27,049 bases of DNA from a virus (lineage: Duplodnaviria; Caudoviricetes): positions 1-27,049 of the IMG/VR virus record IMGVR_UViG_3300011423_000027; one strand, written 5' to 3'. Position 1 is the first letter of the stretch. Each line of letters begins with the position of its first letter. The notes beneath the pieces are model-generated. The model was not told the origin of the DNA, ran no database searches, and saw only the letters and a program-made list of their open reading frames with translations. The position numbers and the translations under genes are program-made. Below are positions 2,016-25,100 of the stretch, one piece after another.

Positions 2016-2894
2016 TCAAACCGGTTTCTCGGATTCTCCCAAGTAGCGCTCCATGCGAGAGATAGCGTCGACCTGCGCGGCCTGATCGACGATCGAGTAG
2101 CGCCGGTAGATCGAGTCCGAGGCCCACCCGGCCAGGCTCATGGTGATCGCGGAGGGGATCCCGGCCAGCATCTGGTACGTGGCAAAGCTTCGGCGTAGCC
2201 CGTGGACCTTTAGATCAGGCATGCCCACGGTCTTCGTCGCGGTCCTCCAAGCCTTCCTGAAGTCGCTCATCCGCTCGCCCGCGCGATGGAAGACGTAGGG
2301 GCACCCGGGCACCTTGGCGGCTTCCCTGCGCGAGAGCAACGCGACGAGCCTGCCGCTGATGGGGAAGTTCCGGACGCGGCGGCTCTTGTTCCTCAGCGGC
2401 TCGAGCGTGATGACCCGCTCCTCAAGTCTCACCTCCTTCCAGGTCAGGTGGAGCACCTCGGTCTTCCTCCAGCCCGTTAGGAAGGCGAAGAGAACGACGT
2501 CCGCGAGAAGCTGATGGCGCTTCGCGAGGTGCTCGAGGATGCGCCGCAGGGTCTCGGCGCAGCACCAGTCCGTACGCACCCCTTCGGCCTCGCTCCGCAT
2601 CTTGAAGCGCGGGACCCGCTCGATCCGCTCGGCGTCCAGGCATCGGTTCATCGCGGCACGCAGGTAGCCGAGCTCTCGGTTCACCGTCGATTGCGACGGA
2701 GGCCCTCCACGCGCGCTTCTCTCCTTCAGTCGGGCCGCGCGGTAGTCCTCGATCGTGTGGCCCCTGACCGACTCGACGGTGAGTGACCCGAGATGCCGAA
2801 GCACGTGTTTGACTTGACTTCGGACCTTAGAAACAACCGCGCCTTCGTGTTCAAGCTGGGAAAGGTAGAGCCCTATCAGGTCCGAAACGAGCAG
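2016..2894 (-). CDS. int: Tyrosine recombinase / phage integrase (start uncertain: CTG 2894 or GTG 2804)
   Basis: Catalytic motifs TGWRKTE (R), NKSRR (K), HGLRRS (HxxR), LAGW, IYRRY (Y); core-binding region TVNRELGYLRAAMN; frame open up to TAG at 2931-2933, GAGGAGG upstream of CTG 2894. Confidence 0.92.
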   Translation of the reverse strand: MLVSDLIGLYLSQLEHEGAVVSKVRSQVKHVLRHLGSLTVESVRGHTIEDYRAARLKERSARGGPPSQSTVNRELGYLRAAMNRCLDAERIERVPRFKMRSEAEGVRTDWCCAETLRRILEHLAKRHQLLADVVLFAFLTGWRKTEVLHLTWKEVRLEERVITLEPLRNKSRRVRNFPISGRLVALLSRREAAKVPGCPYVFHRAGERMSDFRKAWRTATKTVGMPDLKVHGLRRSFATYQMLAGIPSAITMSLAGWASDSIYRRYSIVDQAAQVDAISRMERYLGESEKPV

Positions 2895-16143: not shown

Positions 16144-16174
16144 CGGGTTCTGGCTCTAACCAAGCTCTGACCCA
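16144..16174 (-). promoter_or_regulatory. 31-nt repeated structured element, copy 1 (18 nt upstream of the tail tube ATG)
   Basis: mRNA sense UGGGU-CAGA-GCUU-GGUUA-GAGC-CAGA-ACCCG; 28/31 identical to 21825-21855. Confidence 0.8.
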
Positions 16175-20762: not shown

Positions 20763-21803
20763 TTATTCAATGCGCATTGCATCGAGTATTTCCTCCACAG
20801 CGGCAGCGGGTTTTGACTCTGGAAATAGCCAGTCGAAGGGCCGCTCGGGGCGCGAGTTCTCCTGGGTTCCCAAGGCTGTCAAAAGGGCCTTCTGTGATTC
20901 CTTATCTGCGTACGGGTAGAGCCGCGCGGCCATTGCAAGCAAAGCCTCGAGGCTTTCTGGCGCTTGCCAAGGAGCGGGCTTCTCCATACGCAGGTGATAT
21001 TTTTCGAGATGCTGACAGATTGCCGGGAGATCCTTCTGCGCGAAGGCGCCCGACTTCGTGAACACCTGGGCCGTAACCTCATCCACAGCACGGGGGTCCA
21101 CCCGTAGCTCGTCGCCGAAGACATCGGCTATCAAGAGCTTCGGGCCCTGGCCCCGCGGCCGGTAGAGGTAGGCCGATTCCATACGGCTCTTCCGCTCCTC
21201 CTCGCTCGAAGCGGATTCCGCCCATGCGAGGACGCGGCTCGCCGCTTCCATCGAGTCCCAAGGACGATCGGTCTCAGCCGCGAGCGGGAGATTGCGGTAG
21301 CTCGAGACCGCCTTGATGCTCGTGACCGTGGCGTGAGGGTTTGCCGCGAACGTGACGAGCGAAACCTCGTGGAGCCGGAGCTCCTTAAGGTGCCGCGCGC
21401 CCGTTGACTTCTCCCACGAGTCCTGAATCGTGCGGAAGCCGATCGACATGCCCCGTATCACGCCGTCCTTCATGAGCGCGTAGGCGTCCTTGGCGCGCGT
21501 GACGCCCATGGATAAGCGCCCCTTGACGTGGAGCCCCTTCAGGTCTTCCGAGGCCTCCACCTCGCCGATGACCTCGTCCTTCTTGTGCTGCCAAAGAAGG
21601 GGGAAACGGCCCTTGTTGTGGTCGAGCGTGCGCTTGAACGCGCCAGCCTCCACGATCTCGTTTTCGAGATCCTTCTTGCCGAAGACGGAGGCATATCCGG
21701 CGAAGGTGCCGGAGTCGCTCAGCTCCTTCAGCGCAAGGTCGGGCCGATCGTCGCTCGGGTAAGTCCCGAAGTCCTTGGTGTCAGGACCGTCTGAGATCTC
21801 CAT
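20763..21803 (-). CDS. HK97-family prohead protease with a long C-terminal extension
   Basis: GTFAGYASVFG, LLWQH, GMSIGF, LHEVSLVTFAANPHA; about 180 extra residues follow. Confidence 0.95.
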   Translation of the reverse strand: MEISDGPDTKDFGTYPSDDRPDLALKELSDSGTFAGYASVFGKKDLENEIVEAGAFKRTLDHNKGRFPLLWQHKKDEVIGEVEASEDLKGLHVKGRLSMGVTRAKDAYALMKDGVIRGMSIGFRTIQDSWEKSTGARHLKELRLHEVSLVTFAANPHATVTSIKAVSSYRNLPLAAETDRPWDSMEAASRVLAWAESASSEEERKSRMESAYLYRPRGQGPKLLIADVFGDELRVDPRAVDEVTAQVFTKSGAFAQKDLPAICQHLEKYHLRMEKPAPWQAPESLEALLAMAARLYPYADKESQKALLTALGTQENSRPERPFDWLFPESKPAAAVEEILDAMRIE

Positions 21804-22194
21804 GGGCCAGGTCCGGTGAGTTCCCGGGTTCTGGCTTTGAACAAGCTCTGACCCATGCTGCTTCCTTCATAGTAAACCCGTCGGCACGCCCTTCGGCAAG
21901 GCCATGGCGCCCGGCAAACGAGATTTTCCACAGGGTTCTGCACTTGCTCGCCCTGCCGCGCTCCTTCACCGAGCCCCGGCATGGGAGCGTAACGCAACGC
22001 CTGCCGATCCAGTCCTCGCTCGATTGGTAGAGCGGGCGCTTGCAATAGTGGCAATCGGTTTCATTCGGCGAGAGAGTCACGATCCTCTGGCAGTCGCTGT
22101 TACGGCACTTAATCTCAAGGAGCGGCCCCTCCATAAGATAGAGGAGGAGCCGCCCGCAGTTGAGACACCTACACTCCGTTTTCTCTTCACTCAT
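21781..22194 (-). CDS. Mu Com-like zinc-ribbon protein with two tandem ribbons (137 aa)
   Basis: ATGA overlap with the portal stop; CRCLNCGRLL...LEIKCRNSDC and CHYCKRPL...TLPCRG...SKCRT. Confidence 0.78.
   Translation of the reverse strand: MSEEKTECRCLNCGRLLLYLMEGPLLEIKCRNSDCQRIVTLSPNETDCHYCKRPLYQSSEDWIGRRCVTLPCRGSVKERGRASKCRTLWKISFAGRHGLAEGRADGFTMKEAAWVRACSKPEPGNSPDLAHGDLRRS
21825..21855 (-). promoter_or_regulatory. 31-nt repeated structured element, copy 2 (21 nt upstream of the prohead protease ATG)
   Basis: mRNA sense UGGGU-CAGA-GCUU-GUUCA-AAGC-CAGA-ACCCG; 28/31 identical to 16144-16174. Confidence 0.8.
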
Positions 22195-25100
22195 TCTTCT
22201 AAAAAGCCCACTGCGCAGCGACAATTATGTACCAAAACCCCATTGGCGGTGTATAATCCACTACCAGTTTGGAGGTTGAACACGTGTCCAGAAAAACGAA
22301 CCCTGCGCTTCTCAAGAACGTAGTCCGGCTTTACCTGGGCGGAGCTTCTGAGCAACTCATCGCCAAAATGCTCCGCGTGTCCCGCAGGCCCATCAGGAAC
22401 CACTTGATCTCTAATGGTGTCGTACCTCGCGGAAGATCGGCGGCCATGGTCCAACGCATGCGCAACGCTACTCCCGAGCAGCGGCGACGTTGGGCGGAAG
22501 CCGCTCATGCGGCTGTCCGAGGCTGCAAGAAGACTCCGGCTCATGCCATGAAGGTGGCCCTGGCTATCGCCGCGTCGAAAGAGCGCCGTCTCTCCATGGC
22601 CGGACGCGGAGAGGAGCCTATGATCCGCTGGCTTCGCAGCCTCGGTTGTACCCCGCAATGGCAGCTGCAAGCTGGCACCCGCAATATCGACGTGGCCATC
22701 CAGCCCATCGCCGTGGAAGTCCACTGCTCCAATGCGAACCCTCTGAGGAACAGCCACAGACGCGAGCGCACCATAGACCTCCTCGATCAGGGATGGCATG
22801 TGCTCTGGATTTGGGCGACCAGCAAGGAGCCTCTTACCAAAGCCGCGGCTCATTACGCGGTCGCCTGGTACCAGGAGACCAAGAGGAACCCAGCCGCGAG
22901 TCGTGAGTACAGGATGATTTGGGGTACCGGAAAGCCTGTGCCCGAAGGCTGTGCGGATCTCGAATAGATCGCCGTTGTAGTAGCGCCTGAAGGCTCTCTC
23001 GATCCCTGACGCTTGGACTTCCGTGTTGCCAGGGAAGCACTGAATTGTCTGCGAAGCCGGAGCCCCGAGGCTCGTATCTCCCGGCCACTGGAGCTGCGCG
23101 CCTCCAACGAGGAAAGGCTGATCCATGGGAACGATCTGCCCGTCTGCGGCGGCGTGGGCGTCGCGCGTCCGCTCGTCCGCCGTCGCGATCCATTGCTTTC
23201 GGAGCACGAGCCCCGTAGCCTTCGCGGCCTCGACCGCTCCCAGGTTCGATGCGTTGATTACCTCGGTCCTCGCAATCACCTCGGAGCGATGCGGGATAAT
23301 GTCTTCGAGGTAGAGGGCATCAACCCGCTTGGCCAGCGCGTCGATGCCCTCGCCTTTCTCGACTCCCTCTCCAAGGACGCTACGCACCGCTTGGCGCGTC
23401 GTCTGAATAATGCCGGTGATCTTGTCCCCGCTTTGCGTGAGGATGTACTTCGAGACGACGTCATCCCACGGGTCTATAGAGTCCTCGAGCGCCTTGGCTT
23501 CGAGCCCCGCGCCATAGCTCTTTCGCATCCGGCTCGTCGTGAGCTGAGCGAAGTCGCGTACCACCATCTGGTAGACGCCGACGTAAGCGCGCTGCCAGGA
23601 ATCCTTGTTCTTGCCGATCTCTGCCGCGGCAGCGTCGGCCAGCCCAGCGGCATAGCCCGCCTGCTTGATTGCGCGCAGAACCTTGTTTCGCTCCTCCTTC
23701 ATGAGCCCGCGGAAGATCCCGATTGCGCGGTCCTCGAAGTAATGCCGCCGGGCGTCGAAGGACTTCCAGTATTGGACGCGCACATCCTTCGTATCGAGGC
23801 CCGTCGATTCCTTGGCGGCGGCCTCAGCCGGCATGGACTGCGCGCGCGGAGGCGCTACGGTCTGCGGCTCCGGATCCTTGCCGCCCTTAAGCACCTCGCC
23901 CGTCTTTCCGTCGAGGAGCACCGTGCCGTACAGGATCAGGTCGCCCGCGGGGCTTGGCGCTTGGTCATAGCCGAGCGCCTCCCGCTTCTCGTTCAAGGTC
24001 AGCGAGTCCGCTTCCTTGATCCGCTTCCAGAGCAGCTCTTGCTGCTCCTTGAGCGCGGATACCTCGTCCAGGTTCGGCGCGAAGAAGAGATCCTCGCCGT
24101 ACGGCTTCACGAGCCATGCGTTAATGTCGTCGAGGATCCAGTAGAGGAGCGGGAGGATGTGGTCCTCGTAGAGCGAGCGCCGCGCCTCCTGGTAGTTCGC
24201 GAACGTCATCGCGTCCTTGTCCCCGAGCATCTGCGGCGGGTAACCCAGAGCCACGGCGACGCTGCGATCGGCCAATCGCATTCCTTCGAGCCACTCGAGC
24301 TCTTGCGCCGTTTGTGCCACGGGGGACCACTCGAGGTCGCCCTGCATGATCGGGTTCCCGGCGTTACGGAAGCCGCCGTACTTCTCGAGGAACTTCTTGA
24401 TCGCCTTATCCTTCTGCTCCTGGTTCATGTCCCACTTGCCCTTGAGGATCCCGGGCGGGCGCGCGTTCGAGGCAAGTAGGTTTTTGTTCCACTCGCGCGC
24501 ATGGTTCCCCTGGGCCACGGAGGCCTCCCCAGGGCGAAGCGGGGAGAGCCCGTCCCAGTCGTTATCTGGGTCCGGGAGGAAGAGCGGCAGCACGCGATCG
24601 AATGGGATCTTGCGCTCGCTGCCGTCTATCTGGGTATAGATCCAACCAGCGCGTGGGTTCGTCTCGGTCCGCAAGCGCATGCGATCCGGGCGCAGGAGCC
24701 GCAGCGCCTCGACGAGCCCGTCGTCCTGGATGGCCTCCGAATGGATGAAGGTTTTACCTGCCACGTAGAGATGGATCACCATCATCTGGACGAAGCGACG
24801 GCCGCCCTGCTCGGGGTTGGGACGCGCCATGAGGTCAATCAGCGGGTGCTCCTCGATCTCCGTCTGCTCCTCGCCTTCCTGGCGAAACAGACACCACGGG
24901 ACTTGCGACATTGCGCGCGAGAGGCCCATGATCGCCGCGTACGCTGTGGCGTTCTGCTCGAAGCCTTTCGTCACCCGGGCTCGGAAGCTGAAGAGGCTAT
25001 CCGAGCTATCGAGGAGGTCGAAAAGCTCCGAGAGCTCGACGGCTTTGCGCTCTGGGCGTGTGCCGTTGCGGGCTCGGGGGATCTTGACGGCGCGTTTCAT
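22191..25100 (-). CDS. HK97-family portal fused to a gpF/SPP1 gp7-like head morphogenesis domain, with a C-terminal intein
   Basis: Portal motifs (HPLIDLMARPNP, GLSPL, NAGNP, LGYPPQMLG, LTLNEKREALG) in about aa 1-400; gpF motifs (RSEVIARTE, KQWIATADERTRDAH, DGQIV, WPGD); splicing would restore TIQ-CRC. Confidence 0.93.
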   Translation of the reverse strand: MKRAVKIPRARNGTRPERKAVELSELFDLLDSSDSLFSFRARVTKGFEQNATAYAAIMGLSRAMSQVPWCLFRQEGEEQTEIEEHPLIDLMARPNPEQGGRRFVQMMVIHLYVAGKTFIHSEAIQDDGLVEALRLLRPDRMRLRTETNPRAGWIYTQIDGSERKIPFDRVLPLFLPDPDNDWDGLSPLRPGEASVAQGNHAREWNKNLLASNARPPGILKGKWDMNQEQKDKAIKKFLEKYGGFRNAGNPIMQGDLEWSPVAQTAQELEWLEGMRLADRSVAVALGYPPQMLGDKDAMTFANYQEARRSLYEDHILPLLYWILDDINAWLVKPYGEDLFFAPNLDEVSALKEQQELLWKRIKEADSLTLNEKREALGYDQAPSPAGDLILYGTVLLDGKTGEVLKGGKDPEPQTVAPPRAQSMPAEAAAKESTGLDTKDVRVQYWKSFDARRHYFEDRAIGIFRGLMKEERNKVLRAIKQAGYAAGLADAAAAEIGKNKDSWQRAYVGVYQMVVRDFAQLTTSRMRKSYGAGLEAKALEDSIDPWDDVVSKYILTQSGDKITGIIQTTRQAVRSVLGEGVEKGEGIDALAKRVDALYLEDIIPHRSEVIARTEVINASNLGAVEAAKATGLVLRKQWIATADERTRDAHAAADGQIVPMDQPFLVGGAQLQWPGDTSLGAPASQTIQCFPGNTEVQASGIERAFRRYYNGDLFEIRTAFGHRLSGTPNHPVLTTRGWVPLGLLVPGDRVMSRGFGKRLLAGRPNPEHMPSLIEEVYGALASVAVPQRVRIGAVDFHGDGLDGHVDIAGASLQLPLRGTTEAAKPADHRLLSASGHGETALFRRGDSQGHLHGMSRSLLAASDSRMSGFRPTSPLLGSSVAHALDHGRRSSARYDTIRDQVVPDGPAGHAEHFGDELLRSSAQVKPDYVLEKRRVRFSGHVFNLQTGSGLYTANGVLVHNCRCAVGFLEE
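22252..22275 (+). promoter_or_regulatory. Antisense -10 box and SD for the nested endonuclease gene
   Basis: TATAAT at 22252-22257, GGAGG at 22271-22275, GTG at 22284; no good -35 box. Confidence 0.65.
22284..22967 (+). CDS. Putative homing endonuclease (HTH + NUMOD3-like motif + Vsr/DUF559-like nuclease), antisense within the intein
   Basis: HTH LYLGGASEQLIAKMLRVSRRPIRNHL; RGCKKTPAHAMKVA; GEEPMIRWLRSLG...Q..AGTRNIDVAIQPIAVEVH...R...LLDQGWHVLWIW; own SD and -10 box. Confidence 0.8.
   Translation: MSRKTNPALLKNVVRLYLGGASEQLIAKMLRVSRRPIRNHLISNGVVPRGRSAAMVQRMRNATPEQRRRWAEAAHAAVRGCKKTPAHAMKVALAIAASKERRLSMAGRGEEPMIRWLRSLGCTPQWQLQAGTRNIDVAIQPIAVEVHCSNANPLRNSHRRERTIDLLDQGWHVLWIWATSKEPLTKAAAHYAVAWYQETKRNPAASREYRMIWGTGKPVPEGCADLE

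Follow-up and report, generated by a model that had tools for sequence, protein, structure and literature searches.

The window analyzed here, a 27,049-nucleotide stretch of caudoviricete virus DNA (IMG/VR record IMGVR_UViG_3300011423_000027, positions 1 to 27,049), carries a portal-MuF gene whose product is interrupted by a contiguous intein, and the strand opposite this intein encodes a 227-residue protein that fold and sequence comparisons mark as a likely Vsr-like homing endonuclease. We consider it probable that this antisense nuclease cuts intein-free MuF alleles and thereby spreads the whole 816-bp element. The layout as such is already in print, and the window copy is an example of it and not a discovery. 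New relative to the literature searched, as judged from sequences and structural models, would be that signals for nuclease expression are embedded in splicing blocks F and G, and that the loop between the splicing blocks is not all shadow, since it appears to contain a selected HGDG motif and a folded segment (intein residues 80 to 123).

A Vsr-like nuclease gene nested antisense within the intein

The plus-strand open reading frame (ORF) lies entirely within the intein and runs codon against codon with it, such that nuclease residue i and intein residue j sum to 253 (coordinates in Table 1); this nested, codon-aligned arrangement had been described correctly in a sequence-only reading of the window that preceded our work. 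The nuclease stop faces intein residue 25, and the nuclease frame thus crosses block B. ORF length by itself is uninformative because the same GC-rich host gene has a 489-codon open antisense stretch in its extein; the evidence is homology and selection. The nuclease model has a pLDDT score (predicted local distance difference test) of 92, and its three best matches among 48,161 solved chains, compared with VIA-align only, are Vsr (1cw0; Z 9.5, root-mean-square deviation (rmsd) 2.9, 110 residues aligned), the endonuclease-like 3hrl, and I-Bth0305I (3r3p; Z 8.9 each). Residues 1 to 46 match helix-turn-helix (HTH) domains by fold. Nuclease homologs form 929 clusters at E ≤ 1e-10; PF18741 is found in 51 of 64 family members and an HTH family in 31 of the 64, while the window nuclease itself returns only a weak Pfam match (PF18741, E 0.013) and no PHROG match. 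The HTH and Vsr-like domains proposed in the sequence-only reading therefore stand by fold and by Pfam, the HTH fold accounting for the N-terminal DNA-binding region, but the NUMOD3-like motif that it placed between them is not among the matches listed for nuclease relatives (25 of 47 Pfam families).

The intein has the class 1 signature, with Cys1, T39-P-N-H42 in block B, VFNL (253–256) in block F, His271-Asn272, and Cys+1, and is an in-frame insertion absent from homologs. Its AlphaFold model adopts the Hint fold (Z 13.7 to 1at0, rmsd 1.8, 107 aligned; Z 13.1 to the Mtu RecA intein), consistent with the intact splicing blocks recognized previously, and from these features we infer that the intein splices itself out of the precursor. 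Block B lies ≈30 residues earlier than in solved inteins. Within the sense-frame loop, residues 126 to 227 have no recognizable structure, whereas residues 80 to 123 are modeled confidently (pLDDT 78–93) with no sequence match in the Protein Data Bank (PDB); a profile of 72 sequences, built on the idea that residues 76 to 125 repeat the usual N2 segment in permuted form, gave no PDB match at E ≤ 10.

Three side observations concern the inteins of relatives. Nine family members (L004, L020, L048, L052, L084, L122, L152, L161, and L171), several of which form one well-supported group, lack Cys1 at the usual place and have a longer, Ala/Ser/Thr-rich N terminus, yet keep block B, the HN/QN end, and Cys+1; these may be class 2/3-like variants or have misplaced starts. 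L106 (2326–3229) has a full-length, ordinary N-terminal splicing region without HGDG, and yet the antisense nuclease is present, which possibly points to an ancestral state. In L190 (phage Aaphi23), the MuF C terminus continues for ≈200 residues after the intein, an extension presumably like that of MuF proteins with C-terminal enzyme domains.

Selection on the two strands

Selection was assessed by holding the residues of one frame fixed, redrawing synonymous codons, and comparing the conservation of the other frame across 58 representatives sharing <70% nucleotide identity with each other; the result was similar whichever frame was aligned. The nuclease frame is selected in the loop, and both frames are selected at block B. 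Over intein residues 126 to 227, 49 to 57 of 98 columns are selected in the nuclease frame versus one to two in the intein frame. Over residues 26 to 66, 17 to 18 of 41 columns are selected in the intein frame and 11 to 12 in the nuclease frame, with block B (TPNHP) facing nuclease YR[VM]IxGxG. Residues 67 to 125 carry 27 selected columns in the nuclease frame and seven to eight in the intein frame, including Glu86 and His109-Gly-Asp-Gly112, and this HGDG motif is directly opposite the nuclease strand that bears Glu145. In blocks F and G and in intein residues 1 to 25, selection is in the intein frame. Codons that would stop the intein number zero versus 214 expected in 57 genes, a zero that follows from choosing open frames.

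These results bear on several earlier proposals. The overlap of the nuclease C terminus with block B holds, with both frames selected there, while the ≈170-residue "motif-less" shadow loop shrinks to about 100 residues (≈126–227), as residues 80 to 123 are modeled confidently and contain the selected HGDG. Structure prediction on both frames and a comparison of purifying selection on the two strands had been suggested as checks; the former returns a Vsr-like fold for the nuclease and a Hint fold for the intein with residues 126 to 227 disordered, and the latter finds that loop selected in the nuclease frame. None of the outcomes named as counting against the proposal is seen in full: the plus-strand ORF has nuclease and HTH homology, homologs are open (in four of 103 loci the nuclease match contains a stop, which in two cases lies close to its C terminus), and the sense loop is mostly without structure.

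A close allele of the window element, recovered on low-depth contigs in four other runs, offers a comparison at short range. Of its 15 changed codons, nine do not alter the nuclease (silent-site share 0.23) and five do not alter the intein (silent-site share 0.26), and it keeps Glu110, Gln127, Asn134, Asp136, Glu145, and His147. One variant-allele contig from an RNA library (run X7; depth 2.2) lacks two bases at 22609; the deletion is absent in other runs and is probably an error.

The layout is widespread among phages, and relatives bear a homing footprint

Loci were found with a search pattern spanning nuclease residues 127 to 136 and were drawn from the best 80 of 306 viral matches, the best 80 of 368 metagenome matches (one being the window's own contig), 24 of 24 genome matches, and phage records; dropped before counting were nine of 187 loci in which the intein was incomplete, near-duplicates, the misparsed L060, L117, and L118, and one locus with N. 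An antisense nuclease in the same register, inside an open intein frame with block B, is found in 83 of 83 and 102 of 103 loci (185/186, with the window's contig left out), and the nuclease crosses block B in 124 of 126 relatives. The inteins of relatives are flanked by HPN/CRC- or IN/CRC-type sequences (the slash marks the insertion point), as at the ends of MuF domains. No free-standing copy of the nuclease turned up among the examined loci. There are 126 matching phage records, which come from Gordonia, enterobacterial, Pseudomonas, Vibrio, and Pasteurellaceae phages, with nearly all annotations reading head morphogenesis or hypothetical; seven intein-bearing records that we inspected carry no nuclease annotation, and one of these, PK1, labels the gene hypothetical.

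Evidence of mobility comes from the Guernseyvirinae, in which 58 of 364 matching records cover at least 80% of the gene that bears the intein and many show a match split in two. The N-extein of LP31 is 95% like that of the intein-free ST4 and MA12 and 70% like that of Snoke, PK1, and dunkel, whereas the LP31 intein is 95 to 96% and the last 45 N-extein bases 91 to 96% like those of Snoke, PK1, and dunkel, these same 45 bases being 69% like ST4 and MA12. The pattern is that expected of insertion with co-conversion of the flank and would represent a homing footprint in relatives. Between the LP31 and Snoke loops, 18 of 20 changed codons are silent for the nuclease and one of 20 for the intein.

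Two further loci deserve mention. In L135, a stop interrupts the intein frame downstream of block B although the nuclease frame is open, which reflects either an error or a split form. The Gordonia phages Angelicage (L081) and Sedona (L191) have near-identical MuF exteins and two clearly different intein alleles at the same site.

Putative expression signals within blocks F and G

Codon usage across the family suggests that a nuclease start codon, a Shine-Dalgarno sequence, and a σ70-like promoter are written into blocks F and G by biased codon choice. The GGAGG and TATAAT reported for the window in the sequence-only reading are present, the former at the distance from GTG that it gave, but the spacing between them is 13 and not 14 nt, and the −35 element is weak. 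This TATAAT is the sole copy on both strands of the window. A simple promoter scan of 21900–23400 gave no site owing to the weak −35, and we relied instead on the family test. The codon opposite the residue that precedes block F is ATG, GTG, or TTG in 99 of 126 representatives, because His codons read backward are ATG or GTG; for 21 of the remaining 27, a start lies no more than eight codons away. TATAAT occurs in blocks F and G of 50 of the 126 (null expectation, 4.7), its distance being fixed at either 32 or 51 nt, and the window motif is of the 32-nt type; 20 representatives have a −35/−10 pair scoring at least 11/12 (null, 0.3), and 60 have GGAGG (null, 12.4). Block F was misplaced in L042, L075, and L177 in these counts, and all three were kept. 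Enrichment is likewise found when extein codon use serves as the null. For the block F Leu, 42 of 55 cases use CTC (extein share 0.28), and for the LY-type Leu, 13 of 19 use TTA (extein share 0.04).

RNA-library contigs from three studies cover pieces of 22277–22806 with strand undistinguished and DNA carry-over possible, and thus provide a hint only of expression. Three RNA-library runs have no cover at 22858–23800, where a DNA run had cover; we do not use this gap as evidence because contigs cannot rank genes or give strand.

The putative active site

We mapped the active site by spacing and motif, and not by residue-level superposition, against I-Bth0305I, for which Glu170, Asp196, Asn208, His213, and Asp222 are described in the portions of the report consulted (Taylor et al. 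2011, PMC3239194). Residues conserved in the nuclease are Glu110, Gln127, Asn134, Asp136, Glu145, and Arg162. Glu110 and Asp136 correspond to Glu170 and Asp196 with the same spacing (26) and are kept in 123 of 126 and 126 of 126 relatives, respectively, Asp136 falling inside the locus search pattern. Glu145 (126/126) takes the position of Vsr Phe62, at which Dassa et al. 2009 (PMC2677866) note an acidic residue, and His147 the position of I-Bth0305I Asn208 and Vsr His64. The position of Asp222 (Vsr Asp97) is Glu161 by spacing and is not conserved (Lys in 25 and Glu in 17 of 63). The window nuclease thus differs from I-Bth0305I, as described there, in having neither an equivalent of His213 nor a clear equivalent of Asp222, and by sequence it resembles canonical EDxHD enzymes but is not classed as one; its cleavage activity is putative.

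The sequence-only reading had cautioned that EVHC, where EVDG..H is usual, might mark a variant or inactive enzyme. The general-base His is indeed absent, but the enzyme is not a lone variant: among the 126 relatives, 18 carry an ExH, as in EVHC, and the window falls in a deep group of the His-less type with 28 members (Shimodaira-Hasegawa approximate likelihood ratio test (SH-aLRT) 87, quick tree), all with frames open to the nuclease domain. EVHC is unchanged in the close allele. On these sequence comparisons, EVHC is a clade trait and not lone decay. The usual WH loop is found at 74 of 79 H-x-x/C sites versus zero of 26 [IVAL][NQ]/C sites, and the His-less group is mostly at the latter; we considered co-evolution of loop type and extein type, which this does not show since the pattern is mostly one clade on the quick tree.

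Relation to described systems

The sequence-only reading knew of no description of this architecture; one exists, however, as full inteins with an antisense VSR-like nuclease are reported in actinobacteriophages by Gosselin, Arsenault, and Gogarten (bioRxiv 10.1101/2025.01.02.630785), a preprint that we compare by its main text only. The likeness extends to a contiguous intein, an antisense Vsr-like nuclease, a sense loop without a recognizable fold (here over residues 126 to 227), matches to 1CW0 and 3R3P, and a minor capsid family (IPR006528, MuF) among the hosts of noncanonical inteins, and the Gordonia phage MuF inteins found with the window nuclease are within the scope of that survey. 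The main text places the second ORFs mostly beyond the splicing domain; in contrast, the nuclease here starts in block F and crosses block B, and the family extends well beyond actinophages. The main text makes no mention of a promoter, ribosome, or start codon. It proposes an origin by invasion of a free-standing nuclease; the nuclease may have entered backward, as the sequence-only reading had it, or been inverted later. Preprint cluster 47 (Angelicage, Affeca, Keitabear, and Sedona) could not be matched to the MuF inteins: the main text treats that cluster under endonuclease VII, and the MuF inteins of Angelicage and Sedona are unlike each other.

Other systems share parts of the arrangement, as far as the consulted portions of each source describe them. 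Antisense LAGLIDADG inteins in Synechocystis DnaX and Chloroflexus SpoVR (Gorbalenya 1998, as cited in 10.1101/2025.01.02.630785) are alike in the opposite-strand nuclease gene of a full intein and differ in nuclease family. The nucleases of Dassa et al. 2009 (PMC2677866) and I-Bth0305I (PMC3239194) likewise combine N-terminal DNA-binding helices with a C-terminal Vsr-like domain, but are found either separating the halves of split inteins or inside group I introns and not in a contiguous intein; the split-intein loci are described as having control elements of their own and coding sequence that overlaps the intein ends (PMC2677866). A phage methylase gene hides an out-of-frame HNH nuclease (Arsenault et al. 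2025, PMC11855218) whose ORF likewise lies within an insertion that keeps the host frame open, but on the same strand, of the HNH type, and with no splicing domain. A gpF intein without a recognizable nuclease is mentioned in the Methylococcus genome paper. No earlier report of the embedded signals, the HGDG segment, or the MuF inteins was found in the literature searched, which left subscription journals largely outside; the preprint's supplements may bear on the signals and on HGDG.

Proposed mechanism and alternatives

If the antisense nuclease homes the element into intein-free MuF alleles, as we favor, late mRNA would give the 969-residue precursor, from which the Hint domain would excise itself, removing the ≈100-residue shadow loop along with the intein. 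Plus-strand transcription starting from the promoter in blocks F and G would yield the nuclease and, as the sequence-only reading proposed, may uncouple its expression from that of the late genes. The HTH of the nuclease would bind and its nuclease domain would cut near the ...IQ/CRC codons where a co-infecting phage or prophage has an empty allele, and repair would copy the element plus some flank. With promoter, ribosome site, and stop all inside the intein coordinates, such a unit would be self-contained wherever it inserts.

Several observations weigh against this reading. The window −35 position (22229–22234, GTACCA) matches at three of six bases and is near-perfect in relatives, and a His before block F is also present in the ordinary intein 2jmz, so that its conservation is no proof of a start codon. 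The general-base His (Vsr His69, I-Bth0305I His213) is replaced by Asn152 in the window and is His in 97 of 126 relatives, and window Gln129 (Ala in 119/126) and Arg133 (Tyr in 126/126) depart from relatives. Decayed nuclease genes within intact inteins do occur in the family (L096 and L158, in which stops interrupt the nuclease and the intein is open). Finally, the homing footprint belongs to a distant sublineage (≈30% identical, with GGWAC at the loop), and none is shown for the window's own lineage. The missing His, the two changed near-invariant positions, and the decayed copies, together with a long terminal branch of the window nuclease (0.98, quick tree) and the six of 15 changed codons that alter the nuclease in the close allele, would fit an antisense gene that is expressed but has lost cleavage in this lineage, persisting as a DNA-binding protein or slowly decaying while held open by the intein overlap. 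We regard this as unlikely, given that the six conserved residues from Glu110 to Arg162 are all retained, that His147 maps by spacing to an active-site position, that ExH and the open, His-less group are shared well beyond the window, and that the close allele has an excess of changes silent for the nuclease.

Strong conservation of the promoter-like motif, its convergent orientation relative to the late operon, and the integrase-family protein encoded in the window would suit a plus-strand unit that is mainly a regulator, its antisense transcript or HTH protein damping the head operon, e.g., in a lysogen, with mobility secondary. This is distinctly improbable: nuclease amino acids, the putative catalytic set among them, are under selection, intein-free alleles are common in relatives, and the LP31 pattern is that of a mobile element. 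Hardly any weight attaches to the idea that the ORF shadows the intein by chance, for which the long open antisense frames of this GC-rich gene could be cited, or is an assembly artifact: homology, fold, selection, and signals speak against both, and an artifact is already refuted by a second assembly that covers the region without any difference (possibly from the source sample itself) and by identical pieces in four other DNA runs.

Beyond homing itself, we tentatively suggest, with somewhat more doubt than confidence, that this large and old phage intein family is an interlocked two-strand unit in which blocks F and G spell the nuclease promoter, ribosome site, and start codon, block B spells its C terminus, and the intein has taken up the antisense shadow of the catalytic strands as a selected, folded segment of its own (the HGDG segment), perhaps replacing an N-terminal segment missing here; the window clade would then have a Vsr-like nuclease that is active and whose His-shifted active site goes with a different MuF target sequence. 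Inteins of this kind are annotated without the nuclease, and their mobility is thus missed. The family offers a natural series of two-strand genes, with ≈100 codons doubly constrained and control signals drawn from the synonymous codons of a catalytic domain, which would make the origin of overlapping genes testable, and the element is present in cultured phages that infect laboratory hosts, making expression, splicing, and homing directly testable.

The host gene and its neighborhood

The host ORF is situated in a phage head module (terminase, portal, protease, and capsid) and comprises a portal domain (PF04860, residues 52–377), a MuF domain (PF04233, 571–664), the intein, and a 10-residue C-extein, with a predicted length of 697 residues after splicing. 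The intein-free allele P0011 (698 residues) is 65.5% identical to the N-extein over residues 1 to 691, and in P0011 and other portal-MuF proteins, ...IQ/CRC is uninterrupted, with no intein. No contig bridging an intein-less junction was present in eight runs, so that no near-identical empty allele was seen, an absence that proves nothing.

Table 1. Features of the intein-bearing portal-MuF gene and its antisense nuclease gene (window coordinates)
Feature	Coordinates	Strand	Remarks
Portal-MuF (gpF-like) fusion, 969-residue precursor	22191..25100	−	portal PF04860 and MuF PF04233
Intein, 272 residues, 816 bp, class 1 signature	22224..23039	−	in the MuF C-terminal ...TIQ/CRC motif; Hint fold
N-terminal splicing region, residues 1–62	22854..23039	−	Cys1, block B TPNH (22914–22925); residues 26–62 coding on both strands
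Intein residues 80–123	22671..22802	−	confident model; selected Glu86 and His109-Gly-Asp-Gly112 (22704–22715); opposite nuclease catalytic strands
True shadow loop, intein residues 126–227	22359..22664	−	predicted disordered; selected almost only in nuclease frame
Blocks F and G, His252 to Asn272	22224..22286	−	antisense carries putative nuclease start codon, Shine-Dalgarno, −10 box
Antisense gene, 227 residues, predicted nuclease	22284..22967	+	GTG (22284) to TAG (22967); HTH (≈2–46), helical linker, Vsr/EDxHD-like nuclease domain (≈104–222)
Putative Shine-Dalgarno GGAGG	22271..22275	+	8 nt before GTG; from block F Asn-Leu(CTC)-Gln codons
−10-like TATAAT	22252..22257	+	13 nt before GGAGG; from block F Leu(TTA)-Tyr codons

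Elsewhere in the window, an integrase-family protein is encoded at 2016–2804 (minus strand; phrog_1, E 5e-43) downstream of the tail genes, which suggests a temperate phage. The ORF at 21781–22224 (minus strand), between portal-MuF and the protease, has no match in Pfam or PHROG scans of the window proteins; it contains paired CxxC motifs and resembles zinc ribbons of the Mu Com type. Finally, a 31-nt direct repeat (28/31 identical) at 16144–16174 and 21825–21855 lies immediately upstream of the major tail gene and the head protease gene, respectively, both on the minus strand, and is possibly a shared late-gene control element.

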